Below, one piece after another: positions 1 to 15,092 of a stretch of 64,000 nt of DNA; position 1 is the stretch's first letter, and every line of letters starts with the position of its first letter. The DNA comes from Eubacteriales bacterium (lineage in GTDB: Bacteria; Bacillota; Clostridia; Oscillospirales; CAG-272): positions 1,788 to 65,787 of the forward strand of contig JAZUBT010000035.1 in assembly GCA_045638685.1 (NCBI GenBank), given 5' to 3'. A model generated the notes under the pieces. That model made no database searches, was not told where the DNA came from, and saw only the letters and a list, made by a program, of their open reading frames with translations. A program made the position numbers and the translations under genes.

Positions 1-138
1 TCCGTAGGATATGCCGAGGAAATTTCGGAGAAAACCGGACTTCCCGTTCTTTATACCACGGTAAGCGAGAATATGTACTTGCCGCTTGAAGGTAAAATTA
101 AAAATCTCTATAAAATAAACCTGCAAAAACGTATGTAA
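1..138 (+). CDS. 3' end of a gene truncated by the window edge (SVGYAEEISEKTGLPVLYTT...LQKRM*), probably co-transcribed with the vor genes
   Basis: Open frame from position 1 to TAA at 136-138, 13 nt before the ferredoxin start; product not identifiable from this fragment. Confidence 0.6.
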   Translation, partial: SVGYAEEISEKTGLPVLYTTVSENMYLPLEGKIKNLYKINLQKRM

Positions 139-151
139 AGGAGAATTTACA

Positions 152-358
152 ATGGCAAAACTGACGTTCAAAACCGATAAATGTAAGGGTTGCGGTCTTT
201 GTGTAAGCGCCTGTCCTAAGGGTGTACTCGCACTTGCCGCTGATAAAATCAATCAAAAAGGACACCATCCGGTAGAGGCTGTAAACGAAGCGGCGTGTAT
301 CGGCTGCGCATTCTGCGCCACTATGTGTCCCGACTGTATAATCAAGGTAGAAAGGTAG
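152..358 (+). CDS. 2x[4Fe-4S] ferredoxin-like (delta) subunit of 2-oxoacid:ferredoxin oxidoreductase
   Basis: Two CxxCxxCxxxCP motifs (CKGCGLCVSACP, CIGCAFCATMCP); AGGAG RBS; adjacent to alpha/beta/gamma subunits. Confidence 0.92.
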   Translation: MAKLTFKTDKCKGCGLCVSACPKGVLALAADKINQKGHHPVEAVNEAACIGCAFCATMCPDCIIKVER

Positions 359-368
359 GACTTTAAAA

Positions 369-1436
369 ATGGCAGATAAGGTTTTAATGAAGGGTAACGA
401 AGCTATCGCAGAGGCCGCTATAATCGCGGGCTGCAGACATTACTTCGGTTATCCGATAACTCCTCAGACTGAAATTGCCGCATATATGGCAAAGAGAATG
501 CCGAAAATAGGCGGAGTATTTCTTCAGGCGGAGAGCGAAATTGCCGCTATAAATATGGTATATGGAGTTGCCGCAACGGGAAAACGCGTAATGACCTCCT
601 CGTCAAGCCCCGGGATTTCTCTTAAAGGAGAGGGCTTGTCCTATCTCGCGGGTGCGGATCTTCCTTCACTTATTATAAACGTTCAGAGAGGCGGCCCCGG
701 ACTCGGCGGTATTCAGCCCTCGCAGTCCGACTATTTCCAGGCGACCAAGGGCGGCGCTCACGGAGACTTCCATATGATAGTTTTAGCTCCCGCTTCGGTT
801 CAGGAGATGGCAGAGCTTACCGTTAAGGGATTTGACCTTGCGGATAAATACCGTATGACCTCTATGATTCTTGCAGACGGTACTATGGGACAGATGATGG
901 AGCCTGTTTCTCTTGATATTCCCGTAGGCGAGACGGTAGAAAAGCCGTGGGCGGTTACCGGAACTAAGATGCAGAGAGAGCATAACGTTGTAAACTCTCT
1001 TTATCTTAAGCCCGAAATGCTTGAGAAAACCAACTTTGAGCGTTACGAGCGCTATGAGGTAATAAAGCAGAACGAGGTAATGTACGAGCAGTACCTTATG
1101 GACGATGCGGAAATCTGCATAGCGGCGTTCGGTATTGCCGCGCGTGTTTCCAAAAATGCTATAAACGAAGCCCGTAAAAAGGGTATAAAGGTCGGTATGA
1201 TAAGACCTATAACACTCTGGCCGTTCCCGGAAAAGCAGTTTGCCGCTGCCGCGGAAAGGGTTAAGTCATTTATCTCCGTTGAGCTTTCGATGGGACAGAT
1301 GATAGAGGATATTAAGCTTGCCGTAAACGGAAAGGCGGAGGTTACGCTTTGTAACCGCTCCGGCGGTATGATACCGTCTCCCGAGCAGGTTCTTGCAGCG
1401 ATAGAGGCTGCGGCGGAAAAAGGAGGTAATAAGTAA
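369..1436 (+). CDS. vorB: 2-oxoacid:ferredoxin oxidoreductase alpha subunit, VorB/2-ketoisovalerate type
   Basis: MKGNEAIAEAA, GYPITPQTE, QAESE, TSSSSPG, QRGGPGLG motifs. Confidence 0.88.
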   Translation: MADKVLMKGNEAIAEAAIIAGCRHYFGYPITPQTEIAAYMAKRMPKIGGVFLQAESEIAAINMVYGVAATGKRVMTSSSSPGISLKGEGLSYLAGADLPSLIINVQRGGPGLGGIQPSQSDYFQATKGGAHGDFHMIVLAPASVQEMAELTVKGFDLADKYRMTSMILADGTMGQMMEPVSLDIPVGETVEKPWAVTGTKMQREHNVVNSLYLKPEMLEKTNFERYERYEVIKQNEVMYEQYLMDDAEICIAAFGIAARVSKNAINEARKKGIKVGMIRPITLWPFPEKQFAAAAERVKSFISVELSMGQMIEDIKLAVNGKAEVTLCNRSGGMIPSPEQVLAAIEAAAEKGGNK

Positions 1437-2179
1437 TGGTAGTATTTGATAAGCCCCATGCACTTGCGGATGTACCGCTTCACTACTGCCCCGGATGTAC
1501 CCACGGTATAGTTCACCGTCTGGTTGCCGAGGTTATTGATGAGCTTCAGATCGAAGGAAGAACGGTAGGAGTAGCGCCTGTTGGCTGCTCCGTTATGGCG
1601 TACGATTATTTCAACTGCGATATGATAGAGGCGGCTCACGGACGCGCGCCCGCTGTCGCAACAGGTGTTAAGCGTTCCGATCCCGAAAACATTGTATTTA
1701 CATATCAGGGAGACGGAGACCTTGCCTCGATAGGTATGGCAGAAACCGTACATGCGGCGGCAAGAAACGAAAACATCACAATTATATTCATAAATAACGC
1801 AATCTACGGTATGACCGGAGGACAGATGGCACCTACCTCACTTCCGGGACAGATTACCCAGACCTCTCCTTACGGAAGAGACGTAAACCACTGCGGATTC
1901 CCGATAAAGGTTTGCGAGATGCTTTCTCAGCTTGACGGCGCCGAGTACCTTGAGCGCGTAGCGGTAAATAACGTCAAAAACATAAAGAACGCTAAGAAGG
2001 CTATTAAGAAAGCGTTTGAAAATCAGGTTAACGGCAAGGGCTTTTCTCTTGTTGAGGTTGTTTCCAGCTGTCCTACCAACTGGGGACTTACTCCCGAAAA
2101 GGCTCTTGAGTGGATCGACGAAAAGATGCTTCCTTATTACCCGCTCGGTGTATATAAGGACAGATCGGCAGAGAAATAA
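1436..2179 (+). CDS. 2-oxoacid:ferredoxin oxidoreductase beta (TPP-binding) subunit
   Basis: [22 protein letters not shown] motif GDGD...NN, YGMTGGQ, CPTNW; TAATG overlap with alpha. Confidence 0.92.
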
Positions 2180-2200
2180 GAAAGGTAGGAGTGAGTGAAA

Positions 2201-2746
2201 ATGAAAACAACACAGTATCTTATCGCAGGATTCGGTGGACAGGGAATTCTGTTTGCCGGAAAATTTCTTGCATATAAAGGTCTTACCGACGGCGCAAACG
2301 TAAGCTGGCTTCCCTCGTACGGCCCCGAAATGAGAGGCGGTACCGCAAGCTGCAGCGTTATAATCAGCGACACCCCGGTAGGCTCTCCTATTGTATCAAA
2401 TCCCGACGTTCTTATTGCTATGAACCTTCCGTCTCTTGATAAGTATGAGGACAGCGTTGTTCCCGGCGGAACGATATACGTTGATTCCACCCTTATCGAG
2501 CGCAAGGTAAAGAGAACCGACGTAAACGTATTCTACATACCCGCAACTCAGATAGCTTCGGATAACAAGACTCCTACCCTTGCTAATATGATTATAATGG
2601 GTAAGGTTCTTAAGGAAAACGGAGAGTTCGACGATAAAACATCGGTTGACGCAGCCCTTAAAAAGGTTATTTCCGCAAAGCGTATGGATATGCTTGAAAC
2701 CAACCTCGGAGCTATGGTTCTCGGTAGAGATTACGCGGCTCTGTAA
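2201..2746 (+). CDS. 2-oxoacid:ferredoxin oxidoreductase gamma subunit
   Basis: AGFGGQG and [10 protein letters not shown] motifs; ATG 2201 is best spaced from the AGGAG RBS. Confidence 0.92.
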
Positions 2747-2872
2747 TTTTCGCAGTACCTAGAAACGGTGAAGTAGCCGTAAAATGGGATACGGTGCTCA
2801 AAACAGAAAGACTTTGTGTTTTTTTGGTTGATTTTGGGGAACGATAAAATTTAATTAATTTGGAGAAATATT

Positions 2873-3937
2873 ATGGAAATCAAAATAACAAAAACAACTA
2901 CTCCGGCGGCAAAGCCCGATCCGTCCACGCTTGGATTCGGTAAGGTTTTCACCGACCACATGTTCATTATGGAGTACACCGCGGATAAGGGTTGGCATGA
3001 CGCAAGAATTGTTCCCTTTGGAAAGATCGAGCTTCACCCCGCGTGTACCGCGCTTCATTACGGCTCCGAGGTTTTCGAGGGACTTAAGGCGTACCGCAAG
3101 GCTGACGGAAGCGTACAGCTTTTCAGACCTATCGAAAACATTCGCAGAATGAACCGCTCCGCAGAGCGTCTTTGTCTCCCCGAAATACCGGAGGATATCG
3201 CTATGCAGGTTCTTACCGAGTTTGTAAAATTCGAGCAGGAGTGGGTACCCTCCGCTCCCGGCACCTCGCTTTATATCCGTCCTTTTATGTACGGAAACGA
3301 CGAGACTCTCGGAGTTCATTCGGTAAAGCACGCTACCTTTATGATAATCACCTCTCCCGTAGGAAGCTACTACAAGGAGGGTATTAACCCCGTTAAAATT
3401 ATGATAGAAGCTGACGACGTAAGAGCTGTAAGAGGCGGCACGGGTGAGGCTAAATGCGGCGGTAACTACGCTGCAAGTAACCGTGCGGGCGAGAAAGCGG
3501 AGAAGAAGGGATATTCTCAGGTTCTCTGGCTTGACGGTGTTGAGCGTAAGTACATCGAAGAGGTTGGAGCTATGAACGTAATGTTCAAGATAGACGGAGA
3601 GATAGTTACTCCTATGCTCACCGGCTCCATTCTCCCCGGAATTACCCGTAAGTCCTGTATCGAAATGCTTAAGGCTGAGGGCTACAAGGTAAGCGAGAGA
3701 CTTATAAGCGTTGACGAGCTTGGTCAGGCTCTTGAAAACGGCAAGCTTGAGGAGGCATGGGGCTGCGGAACTGCGGCTGTTATCTCGCCTATCGGAGAGC
3801 TTTGCTACAAGGACGTTAAGTACGTAATTAACGACGGAAAAATCGGAGAGGTTACGGCTCACCTTTACGATACCATTACCGGTATTCAGTGGGGTAGGCT
3901 TGAGGACAAGTACGGCTGGACAAAGCCCCTTGTTTAA
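2873..3937 (+). CDS. ilvE: Branched-chain amino acid aminotransferase
   Basis: FTDHM, LHYG..FEGLKAY, PLP lysine in AKCGGNY, EVGAMN, ILPGITR, GTAAVISP. Confidence 0.96.
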   Translation: MEIKITKTTTPAAKPDPSTLGFGKVFTDHMFIMEYTADKGWHDARIVPFGKIELHPACTALHYGSEVFEGLKAYRKADGSVQLFRPIENIRRMNRSAERLCLPEIPEDIAMQVLTEFVKFEQEWVPSAPGTSLYIRPFMYGNDETLGVHSVKHATFMIITSPVGSYYKEGINPVKIMIEADDVRAVRGGTGEAKCGGNYAASNRAGEKAEKKGYSQVLWLDGVERKYIEEVGAMNVMFKIDGEIVTPMLTGSILPGITRKSCIEMLKAEGYKVSERLISVDELGQALENGKLEEAWGCGTAAVISPIGELCYKDVKYVINDGKIGEVTAHLYDTITGIQWGRLEDKYGWTKPLV

Positions 3938-3961
3938 GACGAAAAATTCACAATTTATTCA

Positions 3962-3990
3962 TTGACAAAAGCAGCTCGCTGTGATACAAT
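3962..3990 (+). promoter_or_regulatory. Sigma-A promoter of the T-box operon
   Basis: TTGACA (3962-3967), 17 nt spacer, TG-n-TACAAT extended -10 (3985-3990). Confidence 0.85.
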
Positions 3991-4009
3991 TACTTTGTTA
4001 TGACAAATG

Positions 4010-4262
4010 CAAAGAAGGAATTATTTTCCGCTGAAAGCATCACAGAGAGTCGGCGCTACGGTGCAAGTCGATATGCAGAAAACGGAAAAGTCTCGTTCCC
4101 GAGCAGAACCTCCGAAAGTTTTTCAGTAAGAGGCTCCGGAATGCCCCGTTATCAAGGCAAAAGGCTTGACAGAGTCTTACAGAGAGACCGCTTTTGCGGT
4201 AATCAGGGTGGTAACACGGATAAATTCGTCCCTGAAGCCTTATGGCTTCGGGGACTTTTTTT
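4010..4262 (+). promoter_or_regulatory. T-box riboswitch, leucine specifier (CUC)
   Basis: Stem I (GGAA/TTCC, TTTTCCG/CGGAAAA, AGAGA bulge, GGTGCAA loop), CTC at 4092-4094, CCGTTA F-box, T-box AGGGTGGTAACACGG (UGGU fits tRNA-Leu A73), terminator GTCCCTGAAGCC/GGCTTCGGGGAC + T-run at 4228-4262. Confidence 0.92.
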
Positions 4263-4292
4263 ATAAAATCAGCAGAAAGAGAGAACTTAAAA

Positions 4293-5690
4293 GTGAAAAA
4301 GATTACAATAGCCGATATGACTCTTACGGAATATTCCCAGACGTTATCGTTTAAAGAAAAGATTGAGGTTGTAAGAAGTCTTGATAACCTAAACGTTGAC
4401 GTTATATATATGCCGAGAATAGAAAACGTAAAGGCCGACAGCCTGCTTATCCGTACCGTTTCGGCGTTTGTAAAGAACAGCACGTTATGTGTCGAGGCGG
4501 GTAATACGGCCGAAAGTATAGAAGCGGCGGCTATGGCTATATCGGGAGCTAAAAGCGCCCGTATGTCGGTAAGGCTTCCCGTATCTCCCGTTCAGATGGA
4601 ATATACCTATCACAAAAAGCCTGCTAAAATGGCGGAGCTTGCGAAGGAGCTTTTTGCCGCAGCAACGGCAAAATGCGAGAACGTTGAGTTTTACGCGGAG
4701 GACGCAACCCGCGCTGACGGTGCGTTCTTACGCGAGATGGTAACGGCAGCGATAGACGCCGGAATAAAGACGGTTACCTTCTGCGACGACGAGGGTTCTA
4801 TGCTTCCAGACGAGTTTTCCGCGTTTATCGAGGGGCTCCGTAAGGATATTCCCGAGCTTGACGGTGTGTCTATTGGAGCGGTATGCAAAAACACGAACGG
4901 AATGTCAAGCGCCTCTGCCGTAATGGCGGTAAAGGCGGGAGTAAGTGAAATAAAGTGCTGCGTAGGTAAAAACGAAATCACCGGACTTTCCGATTTCGCG
5001 AAAATTCTTTCCGACAGCGGAGACAGATGCGGTGTTTATTCGAGCATCAACTACAACGTTCTCAGCCGTACAGTAAATCAGATAAAGTGGATAGAGGGCG
5101 ATAAAAAATCGGGTGTCTCGACTACCGTAGAGCTTTCCGATAACAATGCTGACGTATTTGATATTCACGATAGCGAGGAAAACGTAGCCGTAGCCGTTAA
5201 AAAGCTCGGTTATGAGCTTTCGGACGATGATTTTGTAAGGGTTTACGAGGAGTTTAAGCGTGTTGCCGCCAAGAAAAATATTACGGCAAAGGACCTCGAC
5301 GCGATCGTATCGAGCGTTGCGCTTCAGGTTCCCCCCACGTATAAGCTTGTAAGCTACGCTATAAATAGCGGAAACATTATTACTTCGTCTGCTCAGATAA
5401 AGCTTGATAAAAAGGGTGAATTTATAAGCGGAATCTCTATGGGAGACGGTCCTATTGACGCCGCCTTCAAAACCCTTGAGCAGATAATAGGACGTCATTT
5501 TGAGCTTGACGATTTCCAGATTCAGTCGGTAACCGAGGGACAGGAGGCTATGGGATACGCTCTCGTAAAGCTTCGTAACGAGGGCAAGCTTTACTCCGGA
5601 AACGGTATTTCCACCGATATTATGGAGGCATCAATCAAGGCATATATAAACGCAGTTAACAAAACGGTTTACGAGGAGGAAACAAAATGA
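4293..5690 (+). CDS. LeuA (2-isopropylmalate synthase)-like protein with degenerate catalytic domain and intact C-terminal regulatory domain
   Basis: LeuA architecture; C-terminal GDGPIDAA, FQIQSVTEG, GNGISTDIMEAS intact; DTTLRDG and HxH motifs replaced. GTG 4293 chosen because ATG 4242 lies inside the T-box terminator. Confidence 0.85.
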   Translation: MKKITIADMTLTEYSQTLSFKEKIEVVRSLDNLNVDVIYMPRIENVKADSLLIRTVSAFVKNSTLCVEAGNTAESIEAAAMAISGAKSARMSVRLPVSPVQMEYTYHKKPAKMAELAKELFAAATAKCENVEFYAEDATRADGAFLREMVTAAIDAGIKTVTFCDDEGSMLPDEFSAFIEGLRKDIPELDGVSIGAVCKNTNGMSSASAVMAVKAGVSEIKCCVGKNEITGLSDFAKILSDSGDRCGVYSSINYNVLSRTVNQIKWIEGDKKSGVSTTVELSDNNADVFDIHDSEENVAVAVKKLGYELSDDDFVRVYEEFKRVAAKKNITAKDLDAIVSSVALQVPPTYKLVSYAINSGNIITSSAQIKLDKKGEFISGISMGDGPIDAAFKTLEQIIGRHFELDDFQIQSVTEGQEAMGYALVKLRNEGKLYSGNGISTDIMEASIKAYINAVNKTVYEEETK

Positions 5691-8206
5691 AGCTTTCATT
5701 TTCAACAAAGGGCTGGCACGGTAAAACCTTTGAAGAGCTTTGTGAGATAGCAAAGGAGCTTCGCTTTTCCGGAATAGAGCTTCATAATATAAAAAACAAG
5801 CTGTTTACAGATAGCGACAGCGCGTTTAATGACTATGCAACCGCCGCTACTCTCCGCAGACTGTACGAGATGAAGATAAGCATTCCCTGTATAGACAGTA
5901 TATGCGATCCGGCTGATACGGAAAAGGCAGACGAGGCTATGAGAGAGCTTAAGGAGTGCATCCGTATAGCGAAAAATCTTCATATTCCTTATATAAGAGT
6001 ACACGCATCCGCTCACGGGGAAAAGGATTTTGAAACTGTAAGAGCTTTTATCTCCGAGATTCTTCCGATAGCGGAATCCGCGGGTGTTCATATTCTGCTT
6101 GAAACGAGCGGACTTTTCAGCGATGCAAAAACTCTCCGCGATATGCTTGATAGCTTTGCGAGTGATAGCCTTTCGGCGCTTTGGGATGTTTATTCCTCTT
6201 ATTTTATAGCCGGACAGTCTCCCGAAGCCACGATAGAAACTCTCGGCGCTTACGTAAAGCATATTCACATAAAGGACGCCGAAAAGACGGAGGACGGCAT
6301 ACGTTACTCTCTTATGGGCGAGGGACAGCTGCCTATCAGCGAGCTTATAGGTGCGCTGCGTTCCGTTAACTATAACGGCTTTATCTCGCTTGAATGGCAC
6401 CCGAAATGGTGCGAGGAGATAGATGACCTTGAAATTATCCTTTCTCAGTTTGAAAACTTTATGAGTCAGTTCAGCGATACCGCAAGAGCTGATAACTCAC
6501 TTTATTATAACAAATCCCATACGGGTAGATACGTCTGGAAAAAGGAGCTTCTTATAGACCTCACCTTTCCGAAGGTTCTCGACCGTATGGTTGAGGAGTT
6601 CCCCGACAAGCTTGCGTTTAAATATACAACGCTTGACTATACACGAACCTACTACGAGTTCAGAAAGGACGTTGACACCTTTGCCCGTAGCCTTATCTCG
6701 CTTAACGTTAAGCCGGGCGACCACGTTGCGGTATGGGCGACCAATATTCCGCAGTGGTATATAGCCTTCTGGGCAGTAACCAAGATAGGCGCGGTTCTCG
6801 TTTCAATGAACACGGCATACAAAATTCACGAGGCGGAGTATCTTTTAAAGCAGTCGGATACGCATACGCTTATTATGATTGACGGCTACCGCGACTCAAA
6901 TTACTCCGAGACGATAGCCGAGCTTTGCCCCGAGCTTGAAAACACAAAGCCCGGCACGCCGCTTCACAGCCGCCGTCTGCCCTTCCTCCGTAACGTAATT
7001 ACGGTAGGCTTTAAGCAGAAGGGCTGCCTTACTTGGGAGGAGACGGTAGCGAGAGCGGATATGGTACCGGTTGACGAGGTTTACCGCCGCGCCGCCGCCG
7101 TTGATAAGGACGACGTATGTAATATGCAGTACACCTCGGGAACCACCGGCTTCCCCAAGGGCGTTATGCTTACCCACTATAACGTTGTAAATAACGGAAA
7201 ATGCATCGGAGACAGAATGGATCTCTCCACCGCCGACAGAATGATGATACAGGTCCCGATGTTCCACTGCTTCGGAATGGTTCTTGCTATGACTGCAAGT
7301 ATGACGCACGGCGTTACCCTGCTTCCGCTTCCGTATTACGCGCCGAAGCCCGCGCTTGCGTGTATAAATTCTGAAAGAATAACCGCCTTCCACGGTGTTC
7401 CTACCATGTTTATATCGCTCCTTGAGCACGAGGACTTTGAAAAGACCGATTTTTCGTATATGCGTACCGGTATTATGGCGGGAAGCCCCTGTCCTATCTC
7501 CGTTATGCAGGACGTTATAAAGAAGATGCACATGGACGAGATAACCATAGTTTACGGACAGACCGAGGCGTCTCCCGGCTGTACTATGAGCTCAACCGAC
7601 GACCCTATTGAGGTAAGAGTAGGAACGGTAGGACGTGCGCTTCCCGAAATAGAATGCAAGATAGTTAATCCCGAAACGGGAGAGGAATGTCCCGATGACG
7701 TAACGGGAGAGTTTGTGGCGAGAGGCTACAACATTATGAAGGGCTACTACAAGATGCCCAAGGCTACCGCAGCGGCGATAGATAAGGACGGCTGGCTCCA
7801 TACGGGAGACCTTGCCTGCCGAACGGCGGAGGGTAATTTCCGTATTACGGGACGCCTTAAGGATATGATTATCAGAGGCGGAGAGAACATCTATCCAAAG
7901 GAGATAGAGGAGTTTATCTATACCCACCCGAAGGTTAAGGACGTTCAGGTTATAGGTGTTCCCGACGAGCAGTACGGCGAGGAGATAATGGCGTGTATCA
8001 TTTTGAAGGACGGCGAGGAAATGACCGTTTCCGAGATGAAGGACTACATTAATTCTCACATGGCGCGTCATAAGGTTCCGAAATATATTGACTTTGTAAA
8101 AGAGTTCCCGATGAACGTTGCGGGTAAGATACTTAAGTACAAAATGCGCGAGGACGCCATCGAAAAGCTTGGTCTGCAAAAGGCGGCAAAGGTGGTAACG
8201 GCGTAA
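5687..8206 (+). CDS. Fusion: N-terminal xylose-isomerase/AP-endonuclease-2-like TIM barrel + C-terminal AMP-forming acyl-CoA ligase
   Basis: N-term GIEL, LLET, WD, HIHIKD, GEG, SLEW; C-term QYTSGTTGFPKG, YGQTE, GWLHTGD, RLKDMIIRGGENIYP, GKILK; ATGA overlap with upstream gene. Confidence 0.9.
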   Translation: MKLSFSTKGWHGKTFEELCEIAKELRFSGIELHNIKNKLFTDSDSAFNDYATAATLRRLYEMKISIPCIDSICDPADTEKADEAMRELKECIRIAKNLHIPYIRVHASAHGEKDFETVRAFISEILPIAESAGVHILLETSGLFSDAKTLRDMLDSFASDSLSALWDVYSSYFIAGQSPEATIETLGAYVKHIHIKDAEKTEDGIRYSLMGEGQLPISELIGALRSVNYNGFISLEWHPKWCEEIDDLEIILSQFENFMSQFSDTARADNSLYYNKSHTGRYVWKKELLIDLTFPKVLDRMVEEFPDKLAFKYTTLDYTRTYYEFRKDVDTFARSLISLNVKPGDHVAVWATNIPQWYIAFWAVTKIGAVLVSMNTAYKIHEAEYLLKQSDTHTLIMIDGYRDSNYSETIAELCPELENTKPGTPLHSRRLPFLRNVITVGFKQKGCLTWEETVARADMVPVDEVYRRAAAVDKDDVCNMQYTSGTTGFPKGVMLTHYNVVNNGKCIGDRMDLSTADRMMIQVPMFHCFGMVLAMTASMTHGVTLLPLPYYAPKPALACINSERITAFHGVPTMFISLLEHEDFEKTDFSYMRTGIMAGSPCPISVMQDVIKKMHMDEITIVYGQTEASPGCTMSSTDDPIEVRVGTVGRALPEIECKIVNPETGEECPDDVTGEFVARGYNIMKGYYKMPKATAAAIDKDGWLHTGDLACRTAEGNFRITGRLKDMIIRGGENIYPKEIEEFIYTHPKVKDVQVIGVPDEQYGEEIMACIILKDGEEMTVSEMKDYINSHMARHKVPKYIDFVKEFPMNVAGKILKYKMREDAIEKLGLQKAAKVVTA

Positions 8207-9021
8207 TGTATGCGGGTAAGTTTTGGACGGTAGATGCTCACTGTCATATCTATCCCGAAAAAATAGCTGCAAGAGCAATTAACGGAACGGATACCTTTTA
8301 CGGACTTCATTCGGTAAAAAACGGTATTGCGGCTGACATGATAAAAGAGGGAACGGCCCTCGGAATAGATCACTACGTCGTTCAGTCGGTTGCTTCAACG
8401 CCAAGACAGGTCAAAAGCATAAACGAGTTTATCGCGAGAGAGGAAGCCGAATATAAAGGAAGGCTTACAGGGCTTGGAACACTTCACCCCGACAGCGAGG
8501 ATATAGAGGGTGATTTCGAGCATCTTTGCGAGCTTTCGCTCCACGGAGTAAAGCTTCACCCCGACATTCAAGGGTTTCGTATAGACGATAAAAGGTGTAT
8601 GAAAATATATGAGCTGTGTGAAAGCCACGGGCTTCCGATACTTATGCATACGGGAGACTATCGCTACGATAATTCTAACCCCGATAGGCTAATTCCTGTT
8701 TTGAAGGCATTTCCGAAGCTTATTACGGTCGGTGCGCATCTCGGCGGCTGGTCGGTATGGGACGAGGCGGCGAAGAAGCTTTGCGGATTTGAAAATTTTT
8801 ACGTTGATTCTTCTTCCTCGTTTAATTTTCTGACCGATGAGAAAATGAAGGAGCTTATCCTCGCTTACGGCGTGGATAGGGTGCTGTTTGCGACCGATTA
8901 TCCTATGTGGGATGCAGGCGAGGAGCTGAAGCGCCTTGCCTCCCTCGGATTTACCGATGAGGAGTATTCGCTTCTTCTCGGAAAAAACGCGGCAAAGGTT
9001 TTCGGTATAGGAGAAAATTAA
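8206..9021 (+). CDS. Amidohydrolase_2 family metal-dependent hydrolase/decarboxylase
   Basis: DAHCH, GVKLHP, HTG, AHLGG, FATDYP; TAATG overlap. Confidence 0.88.
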   Translation: MYAGKFWTVDAHCHIYPEKIAARAINGTDTFYGLHSVKNGIAADMIKEGTALGIDHYVVQSVASTPRQVKSINEFIAREEAEYKGRLTGLGTLHPDSEDIEGDFEHLCELSLHGVKLHPDIQGFRIDDKRCMKIYELCESHGLPILMHTGDYRYDNSNPDRLIPVLKAFPKLITVGAHLGGWSVWDEAAKKLCGFENFYVDSSSSFNFLTDEKMKELILAYGVDRVLFATDYPMWDAGEELKRLASLGFTDEEYSLLLGKNAAKVFGIGEN

Positions 9022-9026
9022 ATAAA

Positions 9027-9057
9027 AACGCCCTTGGACAGTAAGCCCAAGGGCGTT
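9027..9057. terminator. 11-bp hairpin after the amidohydrolase gene (no + strand U-tract)
   Basis: AACGCCCTTGG / CCAAGGGCGTT. Confidence 0.6.
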
Positions 9058-9135
9058 GGTACGGAAACAAAAACTTAAGGTACGGAAACAAAAACTTAGG
9101 GCACGGAAACAAAACTTAAGGTACAAAAACAAAAC
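9058..9135. repeat. Tandem repeat, 20-21 bp unit, about 4 copies
   Basis: GGTACGGAAACAAAAACTTAA, GGTACGGAAACAAAAACTTAG, GGCACGGAAACAAAACTTAA, GGTACAAAAACAAAAC. Confidence 0.9.
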
Positions 9136-9215
9136 CGTTATGGCACGATCGTGTTCTTTAACGGTGAAAATAAACTAACCCCGAAAGTGGGTAAAACAAA
9201 AAACGGAGCAGTAAA

Positions 9216-9998
9216 ATGAATTCTTTGGAAATAAGGGGAAGCCAAAGAAAGGTTTTTGCCGAGGGCATGAGAGATGCCATTCCGATAGGACTCGGATACC
9301 TTGCCGTATCCTTTTCTCTCGGTATTATGGCAAAAAATTCGGGACTTTCCGCTTTGCAGTCCTTTATCGCGAGTCTCCTCTGTATCGCCTCTGCGGGTGA
9401 GTATGCGGGCTTTGTGCTGATAGCGGCGAAGGCGGCATACATTGAGGTTGCCGTTATGACGCTTGTCGTAAACGCGAGATATATGCTTATGAGCTGCGCT
9501 CTCAGTCAAAAATTCTCGCCGAGCGAAAAGCTTTCACATAGGTTTTTCAGCGGATATTTCGTAACGGACGAAATTTTCGGTATAACCATGGCAAGAGAGG
9601 GCTTTTTGAACCCGTATTACGTTTACGGGGCGGCGTTTACCGCGGTACCGCTCTGGTCGATCGGAACTGCGATAGGCGCTATTGCGGGAGCGTGGCTTCC
9701 CGTGAGCATCGTAAGTGCGCTCAGCGTTGCGCTTTACGGAATGTTTATTGCGATAATAATTCCGCCGGCGAGAAAAAATAAGATTATAGCAGGTATAATC
9801 ACCGTTTGCTTTGTTCTTAGCTATTTAACGAAATTTATCCCTGCCGCGTGGAAGCTTTCCGAGGGTACGGTTACCATAATACTTACCGTTTTCATTTCCG
9901 CCGTGGCGGCGGTGCTTTTTCCCCGAAAGGACGACGAAGAGGAAGTGTGTTCCGAACGAGAGATGGTATCTGAGGAGAAAGGGGGAGAGGCTAAATGA
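9216..9998 (+). CDS. azlC: AzlC family branched-chain amino acid transporter subunit
   Basis: G..DAIPIGLGY..VSFSLG, VNARY.LMS, TDEIF; hydrophobic. Confidence 0.9.
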   Translation: MNSLEIRGSQRKVFAEGMRDAIPIGLGYLAVSFSLGIMAKNSGLSALQSFIASLLCIASAGEYAGFVLIAAKAAYIEVAVMTLVVNARYMLMSCALSQKFSPSEKLSHRFFSGYFVTDEIFGITMAREGFLNPYYVYGAAFTAVPLWSIGTAIGAIAGAWLPVSIVSALSVALYGMFIAIIIPPARKNKIIAGIITVCFVLSYLTKFIPAAWKLSEGTVTIILTVFISAVAAVLFPRKDDEEEVCSEREMVSEEKGGEAK

Positions 9999-10315
9999 AA
10001 AACAATATATTTGTCTATATCCTGATTATGGCGGGAGTTACATACCTTGTAAGAGTACTGCCTATCACCCTTATACGAAAGCAGATTAAAAACCGTTTTG
10101 TAAAATCCTTCCTTTATTACGTTCCGTACGTAACCCTTGCCGTTATGACGTTCCCCGCGATACTGAACGTTACACAGTCTCCGATTTCGGGAGCGATAGC
10201 TCTTGCGGTCGGAATAGCTCTCGCGTGGTTCGGCGCAAGTCTTTTCAAGGTTGCGGTTGCCTCTTGCTCGGTTGTGTTTATTTCAGAGCTGATAATGACG
10301 TATTTGATTAAGTAA
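9995..10315 (+). CDS. azlD: AzlD family transporter subunit
   Basis: MAGVTYLVRVLP, FLYYVPY..LA.MTFP; overlaps azlC. Confidence 0.88.
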   Translation: MKNNIFVYILIMAGVTYLVRVLPITLIRKQIKNRFVKSFLYYVPYVTLAVMTFPAILNVTQSPISGAIALAVGIALAWFGASLFKVAVASCSVVFISELIMTYLIK

Positions 10316-10342
10316 AAAACCTTCCCACGGGGAAGGTTTTTT
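10314..10342. terminator. Bidirectional intrinsic terminator between azlD and clpC
   Basis: AAAAAACCTTCCC-acg-GGGAAGGTTTTTT. Confidence 0.85.
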
Positions 10343-10347
10343 GCTTT

Positions 10348-12813
10348 TTATTCGCTTTTTTCTTTATTCCATACAAGACCGTTTTCATCTGCGGAAACGG
10401 TTACCGTATCGCCCTTTGCAAATTTTCCCTCAAGCATCGCCGTGGCAAAGCCGTCCTCTACCTTATGAACTATTGTACGGCGGAGAGGCCTTGCTCCGTA
10501 AACCCTGTCGGTTCCTTCCCTTGCGAGGTAGTCCATAGCCTTTTCGTCAAAGCGTATGTTAACCCCTATCGCCGCTATACGCTTTACAACAGATTTAATC
10601 ATATTATCGGCAATACGGCGTATATCCGCGTCGGAAAGCTTATCAAAGACTATAATCTCGTCAATTCGGTTAAGGAATTCGGGACGGAACGCTTCTTTAA
10701 GAGCGGACATTACGCGTTCTCTTGTAGCCGCCTTCTCGTCTGCGGGCGCGTTTGAAACGGTAAAGCCGAGCGTTTTTCCCGAGGTAGTTATTTCTCTTGC
10801 GCCAAGGTTCGAGGTCATAATGATAACCGCGTTTTTAAAGTCAACACGCCTACCCTGAGAGTCGGTTAAAATACCGTCGTCAAGTATCTGGAGCATAAGA
10901 TTAAAGACGTCGGGGTGCGCTTTTTCGATTTCGTCGAAAAGAACTACCGAATAAGGCTTACGGCGTATCTTCTCGGTAAGCTGACCGCCCTCATCGTATC
11001 CGATATAACCGGGAGGGGAGCCTATCATTTTGGATACGCTCGCCTTTTCCATATACTCCGACATATCTACCCTTATCATTGCGTTTTCGTCTCCGAAAAG
11101 GATTTCGGCAAGAGCCTTCGAAAGCTCGGTTTTACCGACACCCGTCGGCCCGAGGAATATAAACGAGCCTGTCGGACGGCTCGGGTCCTTAAGTCCTATT
11201 CTTGAACGTCTTATCGCGTTTGCGACGGATACTACCGCCTCGTCCTGACCGATAACTCTTTCGTGAAGCAGCTTTTCAAGGCTAAGGAGCCTGCTTTCCT
11301 CCTCCTCGGCAAGCTTTTTGACCGGTATGCCCGTCCACTGAGTAACTATTTCCTCTATGTCTGATGCGGTAACCGCATCGCTTTCCGGAGTTTTGTTTTT
11401 CTCCCATTCCGTTTTCTTGGCGTTGTACTCGTCATTAAGCTTCGTTTCCTCGTCGCGTATCCTTGCGGCCTTTTCGAAATCCTGGTCAACTATCGCGTCG
11501 CGCTTTTCGTCGGCAAGCTTTTTAAGCTGCGCTTCAAGAGCTTTGACGTCTTCGGGAACCGAAAGAGTGCCTATACGCTTTCTCGAAGCCGCCTCGTCGA
11601 TAAGGTCTATCGCTTTATCGGGCAGATAGCGGTCGCCTATATAACGTCTTGAAAGATTTACTGCCGCCGTAACGGCTCCGTCGGAGATTTTAAGCTTATG
11701 ATGCTCCTCGTATCTTGGGCGCAGTCCCATTAAAATCTTTACCGCGTCCTCGGGGGAGGGTTCTCCAACGCTGACCGACTGGAAGCGTCGCTCGAGCGCG
11801 GCGTCCTTTTCAATATATTTACGGTATTCCGATACCGTGGTGGCGCCTATTACCTGAAATTCACCCCTTGAAAGCGCGGGCTTTATAATGTTGGCGGCAT
11901 CCATGCTGCCCTCCGAGGTTGCCCCCGCGCCGACTATGGTGTGAATTTCGTCTATGAAAAGAATTACTCCGCGGTTACCTTTAACCTCGTTCATAACCCC
12001 TTTCAGGCGCTCCTCGAACTCACCCCTGTACTTTGTTCCCGCAAGCATACCCGAAACGTCAAGGCTTACTATTATTTTCCCCTTAAGATTTTCGGGCACG
12101 TCTCCATTGACTATTTTCTGCGCAAGTCCTTCCACAACGGCTGTTTTACCGACACCCGCCTCGCCTATAAGACAAGGATTGTTCTTTGTACGTCTTGACA
12201 GAATCTGTATAAGGCGTTCGCTTTCGCTGTCGCGTCCTATAACGGGATCAAGCTTTCCTTCCTTTGCCATTCTGGTAAGATCCTTGCCGTATTTTTTAAG
12301 ATTTGCCATTCCTCTGAAAGATTGAGAGCCGAGATTTTCCTCGCGGACGTCGTCTGTTTCTCCGCTATCCTCGCTGTCGGCACTCATTAAGGCAAGAAGA
12401 TCCTTTCCAAGCTCGGAAATATCAACTCCCTCCGCAGAGAGCAGCTTTACCGCAACGCAGTCGGAAAGAGAGAGGAGCGATATAAGAAGATGCTCCGTTC
12501 CGATAGCCTCGCTTCCGCGTTTTGTTGCCTCGTAAGCTGAGGCTTGTATGATTTTATTCATTTTTTCGGTTATGTTTCTCGGCGTGGGAGAGGTTGGCGT
12601 GCCGGAGCCCATGTGATTTTTAACCGATTCGTACATGGCCTCGTAGTCTATTCCGTGTTTGTCGAGAAGCTCCGTTGCCGCGCACTCCTGAACGCTTAAT
12701 ATACCGAGCAAAAGATGCTCTGAGCCGACGTCGGTATGACCGAGCTTTCCGGCTTCGCCGAGAGAGGCGTTAAGAGCCGCTTCCGCGTATTTTGTAAATT
12801 TACTGTTTGACAT
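10348..12813 (-). CDS. clpC: ATP-dependent Clp protease ATPase ClpC
   Basis: Clp-N repeats, [17 protein letters not shown] coil, [17 protein letters not shown]; start ATG 12813 with GGAG RBS. Confidence 0.96.
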
Positions 12814-13003
12814 TTTAATCTCCATTCCGCTATCCAAAGGATAGCTGATAGCATATTTAAGCGAGTTTTCCGTTTTTTGCATCGCGAAACAAAACGCTGC
12901 TTAGCCTTTTAGGAAAACTCAGACGTGAAAAGCTTTTTGTTAGCACTTGCCGAGCCTCCACGCCACACCCGTTCGTTAATAAACAGGCAGAAAAGATAAT
13001 GTT

Positions 13004-14023
13004 TTATCCGTGATTTACTTTTACGGTAGAAAGAGTATCCCGTACAAGTCTTGCTCTTGCCACGTCTCTTGCTGTATCGTCGTCAAGCCCTTCCTTGGTC
13101 ATAGAGATAGTAGCAGGCTGTACCGCAACAAGCAGCTCGCTCATTTTTTCATCGGTTATACCCGAAAGCAGTCCGATGCAAAGACCGAGCTTTATATCAG
13201 CAAAGCCGCTGTTAAACTCTGAGGAGGAGAGAACGTGAGCGCTTTTTAACAGACCGACGCTTCTTGCAATTTTATCGGTAAGCGCGGTTCTTTTAAGCTC
13301 GAAAATACCGTTTCTCGCCCCCCGCTCTGCCTCGACAAGCTTTTTAACGACGTCGGTTATAAGCTTTAAAATCTCCGTCTCGTCTATACCGAGAGAGGTG
13401 CGGTTTGAAATTTGATATATGCACCCCGCCGCCGAGCTTCCTTCCCCGTAAAGCCCACGAATGGTAATTCCCATTTTGCTTAAAGCTTGCTCATAAGAGG
13501 AAATTAAGTTTTTCAGCGTAAGCGCGGGCAGGCAAAGCATAGCGGAAACCCTCATAGCGCCGCCGAGATTTGTCGGACAGGCGGTAAGGTACCCGTATTT
13601 ATCGCTGTAAGCAATTTTGAGCTCTCCGCATATACGGTCGTCAGCCTTACTCGCGTTTTCATAGGCTTTTTTGGGAGCAAAGCCCGCGACTATGCTCTGT
13701 ATTCTTAAATGGTCCTCCTCGCAGACCATAATTTTAACCTTGTCGTTTCCGCCGCTGAGAAGCGCTCTTGTCTTGTCGGAGGAGGCAAATTCGGGGCTTA
13801 CGAAATGCATCTCCATATAAGAGCGGAGTCTATCCTTTTCCGATGAGGTGAAGCGCTCGCAGCCGTAGTCGCTAAGTGTTCCCGATACGGCGTCTATTAC
13901 ATCGGCTCTGCCCTTTTCGTCAAGTCTTGCGGGGAAGGGATAGTCCGAGAGGTTTCTTGCAAAACGAACTCTCGTTGATATAACGACGTCCTGCATATCT
14001 CCGGTTTCCGTGTACCAAGCCAT
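13004..14023 (-). CDS. mcsB: Protein arginine kinase McsB
   Basis: STRVRFARN, EEDHLRIQ, GYLTACPTNLG, RGLYGEGS; operon context. Confidence 0.93.
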   Translation of the reverse strand: MAWYTETGDMQDVVISTRVRFARNLSDYPFPARLDEKGRADVIDAVSGTLSDYGCERFTSSEKDRLRSYMEMHFVSPEFASSDKTRALLSGGNDKVKIMVCEEDHLRIQSIVAGFAPKKAYENASKADDRICGELKIAYSDKYGYLTACPTNLGGAMRVSAMLCLPALTLKNLISSYEQALSKMGITIRGLYGEGSSAAGCIYQISNRTSLGIDETEILKLITDVVKKLVEAERGARNGIFELKRTALTDKIARSVGLLKSAHVLSSSEFNSGFADIKLGLCIGLLSGITDEKMSELLVAVQPATISMTKEGLDDDTARDVARARLVRDTLSTVKVNHG

Positions 14024-14024
14024 A

Positions 14025-14522
14025 TCACTTATCCTCCTTCTTCTCAATAGCCTTTATTTTGTCCCTGATTTCGGCTGCTTTTTCATAATTTTCGGAAAGC
14101 ACAGCTTCCTCCTGCTCTTTTTTAAGAGCCTCTATTTCGTCTCGTTTGGTAAGCTCCTCAACGTGCTTTCCGGGTGCGGAGCCTGAATGCGTGGTATGAC
14201 CGTGAATTCCGTAAATGATTTTTGAAAGCTCCTCGGAGAAAACGTTATAACATTCCGCGCAGCCCGCACGTCCCGTTTTGGCAAGCTCACGTTTTGTTGA
14301 CTTACAGAGAGGACAAATCTTTTTCTCCGCTATTCCCGTGCCGCCAAGTATGCTGTCGCTGAAAAATCCCGAGAAGAGACTGTCGGCGCCACCGCTGAAA
14401 AACGTGCCGAGGTTTTCCTTTTCTGCGCATTCCGAGCAGAGCATACGCTCGCTTACTTCTCCGTTAATTACCTGCTTTATATGAACCGTCGCGCTGTTTT
14501 TATGGCATTTCTGACACAGCAT
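14025..14522 (-). CDS. mcsA: McsA activator (CxxC motifs + UVR domain)
   Basis: CQKC, CSEC, CPLC, CAEC; ENYEKAAEIRDKI. Confidence 0.92.
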   Translation of the reverse strand: MLCQKCHKNSATVHIKQVINGEVSERMLCSECAEKENLGTFFSGGADSLFSGFFSDSILGGTGIAEKKICPLCKSTKRELAKTGRAGCAECYNVFSEELSKIIYGIHGHTTHSGSAPGKHVEELTKRDEIEALKKEQEEAVLSENYEKAAEIRDKIKAIEKKEDK

Positions 14523-14534
14523 ATTTTCTTCCTC

Positions 14535-14957
14535 CTATATTATTGATAAAATTATTTTCTTGATAAGCGATGCCCGTACCGTGTCGCTTACCGCGTAGGC
14601 GTTTGCAATATTAATTATATTTGCTTCGCGCGGAGTTATGATGCCGCGCTCTGCGAGGTCAATTATAAATATGCTTCCGCTTTTTTCGTCAAGAGTATCA
14701 CCTATGGTGTAAAAAAGGTGCATAAGATATTCGTCCTTATGCATAAGCTTCTTGGTTATTCGAACGTAACCGCCACCACCGCGCCTGCTTTCTATAATAT
14801 AACCCCTTTCGGGTGTAAAGCGTGAGGTTATGACGTAGTTTATCTGACTTGGAACGCAGCCTATTTGCTCGGCAAGCTCATTTCGTTTAAGCTCAAGGCT
14901 TCCGCCCTCCTCCTCAAGCATCTCGGTCAGCATTTTTTCAATTATATCACTAAGCAT
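14535..14957 (-). CDS. ctsR: Class III stress gene repressor CtsR
   Basis: LSDIIE, CVPSQINYVITSRFT..RGY.IESRRGGGGYVRI; start ATG 14957. Confidence 0.95.
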   Translation of the reverse strand: MLSDIIEKMLTEMLEEEGGSLELKRNELAEQIGCVPSQINYVITSRFTPERGYIIESRRGGGGYVRITKKLMHKDEYLMHLFYTIGDTLDEKSGSIFIIDLAERGIITPREANIINIANAYAVSDTVRASLIKKIILSII

Positions 14958-15092
14958 TTTTCTACCGTTCCTTTCCTTGACTTTAACCGTTTTATGCAGC
15001 TGTGCTTTGAGTGAAAAAACACGCCGCGCATCTCTCGGGAAATCCCATAGTGTAAGTCGTCTTTTTTGTCGCATTCTTCTTTTTACGGTTTA

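Follow-up and report, generated by a model that had tools for sequence, protein, structure and literature searches.

That rumen and gut anaerobes use branched short-chain acids as growth factors has been known for sixty years, and dairy cattle are given these acids in their feed. To our knowledge, the genes for the activation of these acids, and for the control of that step, have not been pinned down so far. The closest described system is Allison-type reductive carboxylation, studied from the 1960s to the 1980s by labelling and physiology without genes or regulation: rumen bacteria carboxylate isovalerate, isobutyrate and 2-methylbutyrate to leucine, valine and isoleucine respectively (Allison and co-workers, as cited in a passage of PMC7356843), and as late as 2020 one paper still described the reverse reaction, at the level of the enzyme, as 'not proven yet' (PMC7709123). 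Here we describe a gene cluster at the left end of a 64,000-nucleotide stretch of DNA (the window; contig JAZUBT010000035.1, positions 1,788 to 65,787) from the genome of a Eubacteriales bacterium (1.62 Mb, 91.6% complete). It encodes a four-subunit 2-oxoacid:ferredoxin oxidoreductase (Vor) and the branched-chain aminotransferase IlvE, followed by a leucine T-box leader, a LeuA-like protein (pLeuA), a fusion of a TIM-barrel domain to an acyl-CoA ligase, and an amidohydrolase. With a probability that we put at roughly two in three, this locus is the core of a salvage route that would convert branched short-chain acids of the gut to branched-chain amino acids and replace the canonical ilv/leu pathway. 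The predicted chemistry, the gut and rumen habitat and the kind of organism are shared with the Allison-type work; the difference is a defined gene set with three T-box-gated ligases, proposed from sequence.

T-boxes switch genes on when the cognate tRNA is uncharged, and AMP-forming ligases work towards activation of the acid. Enzymes of the Vor type can run both ways; most descriptions and annotations give the oxidative direction. The leaders considered here share with the T-box regulons known from comparative genomics the ordinary transcription-terminating form, with specifier, T-box sequence and terminator; they differ in standing over acyl-CoA ligases and an oxidoreductase, neither of which is mentioned in the main texts of two T-box/riboswitch regulon surveys (PMC2494555, PMC3766115). 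A Leu T-box ahead of leuA is known, for example in Geobacter (a passage of PMC2700814). Purified MbcS, the branched short-chain acyl-CoA synthetase of Staphylococcus aureus, activates 2-methylbutyrate and isobutyrate, with isovalerate a poor substrate (reported in a passage of PMC10026030), which fits a separate ligase type for leucine.

The chemistry, the T-boxes, Vor, IlvE and MbcS-type ligases are each already known. What appear to be new are the assignment of the activation step, the three-channel T-box gating, two fusion architectures and a recycled, catalytically dead LeuA. The initial annotation of the window knew of no description of this gene set as one system, and our literature search, with supplements and most subscription journals outside its reach, likewise turned up nothing on T-box-gated branched-acid ligases in combination with Vor and IlvE, on the dead LeuA, or on the TIM-ligase fusion and the second fusion architecture described below.

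Three T-box-gated ligases with Vor and IlvE

The leader ahead of the LeuA-like gene scored above the gathering score of the T-box model RF00230 and held a specifier, a T-box sequence and a competing terminator, in agreement with the Leu T-box first proposed there. The specifier CUC was read from both the alignment and the sequence, where it is followed by G and the closing stem, and it is matched by two tRNA-Leu(GAG) genes in the genome. The pLeuA gene probably starts at GTG 4293, because ATG 4242 falls within the T-box terminator and the GTG fits the start of homologues. Related loci were collected with the fusion protein as query, which gave more than 600 stretches in species-representative genomes; the best 80 of these were kept, and all 80 are from Clostridia metagenome-assembled genomes of gut or rumen origin (rumen and hindgut). 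Counting the window, 49 leaders were found ahead of pLeuA: 47 carried CUC, one carried CUG and one was cut off and unreadable, so that all 48 readable specifiers were Leu codons. By alignment, CUC was the specifier in all four of the leaders from loci L008, L026, L031 and L075. Six further loci, from genomes without pLeuA, held TIM-ligase fusions, and each of the four leaders found among them was a CUC T-box directly upstream of the fusion. The Leu T-box therefore belongs to the fusion ligase, with pLeuA an addition in one large sub-branch.

The other two channels lie outside the window. Its contig (C35 in our numbering, in which C numbers denote contigs of the genome concerned) extends a further 1787 bases upstream and there encodes the last 415 residues of a ligase, cut by the contig end, and a P-loop NTPase. 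The start of C35 and the reverse-complemented start of contig C18 share an exact 141-nucleotide overlap, and the assembly break lies inside a ligase gene behind a Val T-box on C18 (Table 1). This overlap indicates that the Val-gated ligase gene runs into the P-loop gene, vorDBAG and ilvE. An Ile T-box on C18 precedes a second, complete ligase of the same architecture, with a helix-turn-helix (HTH) domain and a cupin domain ahead of the AMP-binding domain. This genome and many of its relatives carry three T-box-gated ligases, for Leu, Val and Ile. Among the related loci, leaders ahead of HTH-cupin ligases carried GUA in 14 cases, AUC in 10 and CUG in one. In a tree of 26 HTH-cupin ligases the Ile-gated proteins formed one clade (11 of 11, support 100/100), and the Val-gated proteins fell outside it.

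The best NCBIfam model for the HTH-cupin ligases, and the best-matching curated family for both the Val- and the Ile-gated type, was MbcS (NF047394), with 445 bits against a cut-off of 850 over residues 236–754. They are relatives of MbcS and not members of the family. They carry about 235 extra N-terminal residues (HTH_3 and Cupin_2), and whereas MbcS feeds fatty acid synthesis, they sit with Vor and IlvE behind T-boxes. The Leu-gated ligase of the window is of another clade: its best model was the fatty-acid CoA ligase family PRK12583 (NF009233), with 696.5 bits against a cut-off of 832 over residues 287–831. Context and family likeness point to isovalerate as the predicted substrate of the fusion ligase, to isobutyrate for the Val-gated and to 2-methylbutyrate for the Ile-gated enzyme.

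Vor consists of four separate subunits with POR_N/PFOR_II, TPP_enzyme_C, POR and Fer4 domains. With described four-subunit enzymes it shares delta, alpha, beta and gamma genes in one operon and an alpha subunit (VorB) above the cut-off of its subfamily, NF005507; it differs in that the beta, gamma and delta subunits score below equivalog cut-offs. Such enzymes are usually described as oxidative, whereas here the linkage to IlvE and to T-box-gated ligases suggests that Vor runs reductively. It also differs in that a P-loop NTPase gene is nearly always attached, being present with vor in 35 of the 37 related loci that contain vor. The P-loop protein gave weak matches to Pfam CbiA/ParA (in the orthologue from locus L008) and to MrpORP, and may be a maturation factor for Vor.

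Linkage was counted only in loci with enough flanking sequence: at least 1450 nucleotides upstream (n = 70), at least 1300 nucleotides downstream (n = 66) or at least 6 kb on both sides (n = 28). Linkage to Vor and IlvE is conserved among these loci. pLeuA and the fusion were linked in 70 of 70 loci, and among the 28 loci with the longest flanks vorB was present in 19, ilvE in 18, the P-loop gene in 19 and the HTH-cupin domain in 14. One genome (G070) encodes pLeuA, TIM-ligase, the P-loop protein and vorDBAG on one strand. In a sample of 121 genomes from the same bacterial family, VorB was found in 73, and in 40 of the 46 that have pLeuA; in this and the other co-occurrence tallies a genome without a listed match was counted as having none. 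Two of the six pLeuA genomes without VorB carry VorB fragments at contig ends, and a third (G092) is 68% complete. Two others, G036 and G075, have no four-subunit Vor but contain a frame of about 1170–1190 amino acids just downstream of pLeuA-TIM-ligase(-ilvE), in locus L089 (C19, from about 58880) and locus L090 (C33, from about 23260) respectively. By its size and a weak VorB match, this frame may encode an oxidoreductase of the pyruvate:ferredoxin oxidoreductase (PFOR) type, and if so the oxidoreductase would have been replaced at the same position.

No leuB, leuC or leuD lies in the window, as was seen at the outset, and none was found in the whole genome, of which the assembly covers 91.6%. 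Searches of the assembly for ilvB, ilvC, ilvD and leuD came back empty, and every LeuA score stayed below cut-off. For leuA, leuC and leuB the genome gave no relatives beyond three weak matches: a homocitrate/Re-citrate-synthase-like protein (487 aa, C44:38386-39846), an aconitase-type hydratase above the cut-off of PRK11413 (749 aa, C7:52205-54451) and an isocitrate-dehydrogenase-like protein (390 aa, C25:19056-20225); OadA was also among the weak matches. These three proteins probably form an oxidative tricarboxylic acid branch to glutamate. In the family sample, 46 genomes have pLeuA and 27 have true LeuA above cut-off, with one fragment found besides; the two proteins occur together in G046 alone. 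ilvC was present in 39 of the 121 genomes, 10 of them with pLeuA. Nine of these 10 keep the Val/Ile trunk with pLeuA in place of LeuA, which fits a leucine-specific module. A search of the family sample for leuC at E ≤ 1e-60 gave 0 of 121, even in genomes with true LeuA; the threshold or model is unsuited to clostridial LeuC, and the search was dropped as uninformative.

In the route that we propose, an AMP-forming ligase would convert the acid to its acyl-CoA, the four-subunit Vor would add CO2 with reduced ferredoxin to give the 2-oxo acid, and IlvE would transaminate this to the amino acid. Three T-boxes would control supply at the ligase step, and each would respond to the uncharged tRNA for the amino acid that its own channel yields. 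The Leu channel would comprise pLeuA, the TIM-ligase fusion (isovalerate) and the amidohydrolase behind the CUC T-box. The Val channel would comprise an HTH-cupin ligase (isobutyrate), the P-loop protein, vorDBAG and ilvE behind the GUA T-box, and the Ile channel a second HTH-cupin ligase (2-methylbutyrate) behind the AUC T-box, 6.4 kb further upstream and divergent.

Three related loci showed further genes. Locus L054 holds all three channels, and upstream of pLeuA (L054:1337-8286) it encodes an AMP-binding ligase, IorA- and IorB-like subunits of indolepyruvate:ferredoxin oxidoreductase, a PaaK-like ligase and a class I aminotransferase, a set that looks like a parallel route from aryl-acetates to aromatic amino acids. 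In L008 a gene of the Glu/Leu/Phe/Val dehydrogenase family (449 aa, L008:13449-14798) follows the amidohydrolase gene; its product may supply the amino-group donor for IlvE. The operon of locus L099 (G381:C1), comprising TIM-ligase, the P-loop gene, vorDBAG and an HTH-cupin ligase, had no T-box motif. Two copies of the near-palindrome TTTGGCATATGTCA lie there about 200–260 nucleotides upstream of the TIM-ligase start at L099:9406, on the minus strand, and could serve as an operator, conceivably one bound by the HTH domain of the fused ligase.

The LeuA-like protein and the TIM-ligase fusion

Like LeuA behind a Leu T-box, pLeuA has an HMGL-like barrel and a LeuA_dimer domain. Its AlphaFold2 (AF2) model, with a predicted local distance difference test (pLDDT) score of 87.6, matched full-length Mycobacterium tuberculosis LeuA, including the leucine-bound entry 3fig. 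It differs from LeuA in scoring below all LeuA cut-offs (279.8 against 532 for NF002086; 240.2 against 598.7 for TIGR00973), in its active-site motifs, and in its genome, which has no leuC beyond the aconitase-like hydratase, no leuB beyond the isocitrate-dehydrogenase-like protein and no match to leuD. In LeuA we take the Arg and Asp of LRDGEQ to be catalytic, the His-x-His of HxHxHND to bind the metal, and AFAHESGIHQ to be a conserved motif. The protein of the window had been described as catalytically degenerate, and comparison with 3ewb (the Listeria LeuA domain) bore this out, with LRDGEQ replaced by LTEYSQ and HCHDD by VCKNT. An alignment of 69 pLeuA family members with four true LeuA proteins from the same bacterial family showed that neither the Arg/Asp nor the His-x-His motif is conserved in the 69, which also lack GERAGN and a stretch of some 30 residues that includes the AFAHESGIHQ motif. 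The loss of catalytic residues is thereby confirmed, and pLeuA is predicted to be inactive as an enzyme.

The best conserved part of pLeuA is the C-terminal allosteric LeuA_dimer domain, in which dozens of alignment columns are at least 90% conserved; overall identity across related loci was 41–63%. The retained domain would bind leucine, and we tentatively suggest, at rather less than even odds, that pLeuA acts as a leucine-sensing regulatory partner of the ligase. A complex prediction for pLeuA and the TIM domain returned a score of 0.01 (mark 0.32), which is no answer and counts as evidence neither way.

In a class-wide sample of 400 Clostridia genomes, pLeuA was found in 78, from many families. 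A TIM-domain match was present in 202 of the 400, mostly within frames of 820–900 amino acids, that is, in fusions. It was present in 75 of the 77 other genomes with pLeuA, and in the remaining two pLeuA lies at a contig end. Across related loci the ligase domain was 74–92% identical and the TIM domain 35–70%. The six fusions from genomes without pLeuA had ligase domains 67–78% identical to that of the window; the fifth of these is the fusion of L099, in the operon described above. The AF2 model of the TIM domain (pLDDT 91.3) resembled, by Foldseek, the isomerase Art22, the dehydratase AsbF and sugar 3-epimerases. A Glu/Asp/His/Glu tetrad, which from the sugar 3-epimerases we take to bind a metal, is intact in the window and in all six fusions without pLeuA. 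In 46 pLeuA-linked copies the Asp position is variable, and Glu is no longer the majority residue at the last position, where many rows have Val. Stand-alone TIM-like proteins of about 270–295 amino acids (about 30–36% identity) also occur in several large Clostridia genomes, beside the fusion or instead of it.

In at least 95% of 48 homologues of the amidohydrolase, the HxH, His, His and Asp metal ligands are retained. Searches of PDB sequences, the Atlas, a representative set (at E ≤ 1e-30, 106 clusters with numerous fragments among them) and Foldseek gave generic family membership only, and no substrate, for the TIM domain and the amidohydrolase.

Direction of the proposed route and alternative readings

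Induction by uncharged tRNA, together with a ligase that spends ATP to AMP, argues for synthesis rather than breakdown. The core of the biosynthetic reading in the initial annotation, a ligase induced by Leu starvation with reverse Vor and IlvE, finds strong comparative support, in silico, in the three T-box-gated ligases, the conserved linkage, the apparent replacement of the oxidoreductase at one position in two genomes and the failure to find the canonical pathway in this genome. Two points call for revision. The ligase of the window would serve the leucine channel only and not all branched acids, Val and Ile having MbcS-like ligases of their own outside the window; and vor and ilvE stand in this genome behind the Val T-box, not the Leu one.

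A quite different view is that IlvE and Vor oxidise leucine, valine and isoleucine, while the ligases scavenge branched acids as primers for membrane fatty acids. It would suit the usual oxidative annotation of the reversible Vor-type enzymes, and NF005507 itself is named for a dehydrogenase subunit. MbcS, the closest match of the HTH-cupin ligases, delivers its product to FabH (a passage of PMC10026030), and gut clostridia make branched acids by way of a PFOR-type enzyme (bioRxiv 10.1101/401489). However, each of the three specifiers goes with its own ligase type, the genome yielded no alternative source of carbon skeletons for Leu, Val or Ile, and pLeuA occurs together with true LeuA in only one of 46 genomes. 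T-boxes, moreover, induce under scarcity, when degrading the scarce amino acid would be senseless. We therefore rejected the catabolic reading on the T-box logic and the absence of canonical-pathway matches in this 91.6% complete genome, and regard it as quite improbable. A different or longer chemistry for the Leu operon is improbable too: the TIM domain and the amidohydrolase would make some other precursor for the ligase, such as a conjugated, hydroxylated or otherwise modified C5/C6 acid, and Vor and IlvE would finish the synthesis. The conserved metal ligands of the amidohydrolase, the intact TIM tetrad of the window and of the six fusions without pLeuA, and a fold shared with isomerases, dehydratases and epimerases all speak for it, as does the fusion of TIM domain to ligase in most of the 202 genomes, since fusion usually marks consecutive steps. 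Against it, the amidohydrolase was found in 49 of the 66 loci with enough downstream flank and not in the other 17, the tetrad Asp and last Glu are lost in most pLeuA-linked copies, and no search yielded a candidate substrate; isovalerate, besides, is abundant in the gut and needs no preparation.

pLeuA itself might be a decaying, functionless remnant of leuA behind an old T-box, with only the ligase of any consequence. It has lost both the catalytic residues and an essential segment, and other Clostridia have TIM-ligase fusions behind Leu T-boxes with no pLeuA at all. Yet internal stops are absent from 71 of the 78 class-sample matches, pLeuA immediately precedes the fusion in all 70 loci with at least 1450 nucleotides of upstream sequence, the C-terminal domain is its best conserved part, and the structure model is confident. 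On this evidence of conservation the pseudogene reading was rejected; we consider it scarcely credible.

Several observations weigh against the salvage route. Neither ligase type reaches its curated cut-off (PRK12583, 696.5 against 832; MbcS, 445 against 850), so that their substrates are predictions. A search for RNA runs covering window positions 150–10100 found none. The TIM domain and the amidohydrolase have no step assigned to them; this is the largest gap in the proposal, and the longer chemistry considered above starts from it. Since the amidohydrolase ligands are kept and the TIM tetrad of the window is intact, these proteins may carry out extra chemistry for which the scheme has no use. 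With vor and ilvE behind a Val T-box, the scheme does not explain how Vor would rise under Leu starvation, and a scan of window positions 1–10600 found no promoter-like site ahead of vorD. One genome (G013) has pLeuA and TIM-ligase with no Vor, and its sole PFOR-like frame is on another contig. Three T-boxes outside the window scored 80–90 bits, below the gathering score of 93, though with E-values of about 1e-17 to 1e-19. ARAGORN found no tRNA-Ile among the 42 tRNA genes of the assembly; the gene probably sits in an unassembled rRNA operon. The route is also not strictly a replacement, since 10 of the 46 pLeuA genomes have ilvC and one has true LeuA, and the co-occurrence counts overstate the evidence because related genomes are not independent.

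A bolder combination of claims is, taken as a whole, unlikely. In it, about one-fifth of the sampled Clostridia would have swapped the leucine branch for a starvation-gated salvage, with pLeuA acting solely as a leucine-binding subunit that throttles isovalerate-CoA ligase. The Val and Ile ligases, with their fused HTH-cupin sensors, would each combine catalysis and DNA-binding regulation in a single chain. With Vor and IlvE added, the whole would form the long-sought genetic basis of the branched-acid requirement, a regulated three-channel cross-feeding on the products of protein fermentation.

If the salvage route is correct, one gene set would tell which uncultured Clostridia rely for leucine, valine and isoleucine on protein fermentation by their neighbours, how the need is sensed, by way of three T-boxes, and how waste of ATP is avoided. 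The markers are widespread: of the 400 Clostridia genomes, 78 have pLeuA and up to 202 match the TIM-ligase fusion family. From metagenomes they would let auxotrophy, suitable culture media and branched-acid turnover be predicted. The locus would also provide a clean case of a biosynthetic enzyme reused as a pseudoenzyme, and testable substrates for two unstudied ligase architectures.

Gene order and neighbouring features

The genes named in the initial annotation (Vor, IlvE, T-box, LeuA-like protein, ligase fusion, amidohydrolase and AzlCD) were all recovered from open reading frames (ORFs), Pfam and NCBIfam, on the plus strand and each where it had been placed. The genomic order begins with the Ile T-box and its ligase, divergent and 6.4 kb off, and continues with the Val T-box and ligase, the P-loop gene, vorDBAG and ilvE; the promoter, Leu T-box, pLeuA, TIM-ligase and amidohydrolase follow, and then azlCD. 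Coordinates are given in Table 1.

Table 1. Features of the locus (window positions unless a contig is named)
Feature	Position	Strand	Evidence and remarks
P-loop NTPase gene (220 aa, CbiA/ParA/NUBPL-like), 3′ end	1–135	+	ORF C35:1263-1922; starts upstream of window; precedes vorD
Vor delta, 68 aa, two-[4Fe-4S] ferredoxin-like	152–358	+	Pfam Fer4; OorD/PorD-type models below cut-offs
Vor alpha (VorB)	369–1436	+	POR_N and PFOR_II; NF005507 539.6 bits, cut-off 399
Vor beta, thiamine diphosphate-binding	1436–2179	+	TPP_enzyme_C; 2-oxoacid:ferredoxin oxidoreductase beta models below cut-offs
Vor gamma	2195–2746	+	Pfam POR; gamma-subunit models below cut-offs
IlvE, branched-chain aminotransferase	2873–3937	+	Aminotran_4; NF009897 481.5, cut-off 307; TIGR01123 405, cut-off 250
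Promoter-like site TTGACA-17-TACAAT with upstream TG	3962–3990	+	11/12 consensus; best site in window 1–10600
Leu T-box leader	4003–4236	+	RF00230 111.4 bits, gathering score 93; specifier CUC 4092–4094; T-box sequence 4206–4218
T-box intrinsic terminator	4228–4262 (also given as 4228–4255)	+	12-bp stem then T run; overlaps 3′ arm of T-box model
pLeuA (predicted dead LeuA), 465 aa from GTG	4293–5690	+	Pfam HMGL-like PF00682 101.7 bits; LeuA_dimer PF08502 117.6 bits
TIM-barrel domain of fusion, xylose-isomerase-like	5687–6541	+	AP_endonuc_2
AMP-forming acyl-CoA ligase domain of fusion	6542–8206	+	AMP-binding and AMP-binding_C; proposed isovalerate-CoA ligase
Amidohydro_2 metal hydrolase	8206–9021	+	PF04909 105.7 bits, gathering score 26.4
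GC-rich hairpin, 13 bp, directly 3′ of amidohydrolase gene	9027–9057	.	no T run on + strand
azlC, azlD	9216–9998, 9995–10315	+	Pfam AzlC 125.3 bits, AzlD 50.9 bits; terminator 10310–10346
Val T-box	contig C18	-	specifier GUA; 90.4 bits, E 4e-19; precedes first 392 residues of HTH_3 + Cupin_2 + AMP-binding protein
Ile T-box	contig C18		specifier AUC; 87.6 bits, E 2e-18; precedes complete 754-aa HTH_3 + Cupin_2 + AMP-binding protein

The hairpin behind the amidohydrolase gene probably marks the 3′ end of the Leu operon, where transcription would terminate. It is followed, between the amidohydrolase gene and azlC (9058–9147), by 3.7 copies of the 21-nucleotide unit GGTACGGAAACAAAAACTTAA with 85% matches, a tandem repeat that may be a regulatory region for azlCD. 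AzlC scored 50.4 bits against the azlC equivalog model TIGR00346, the cut-off of which is 332.35. The azlCD genes had been counted as part of the set, but azlC was present in none of the 80 related loci; on this ground, and because the hairpin and tandem repeat set azlCD apart from the Leu operon, their membership was rejected.

The right border of the cluster is formed by an operon on the minus strand (window 10348–15074) encoding ctsR, an mcsB-like gene (ATP:guanido phosphotransferase) and a ClpC/ClpB-like AAA+ chaperone.

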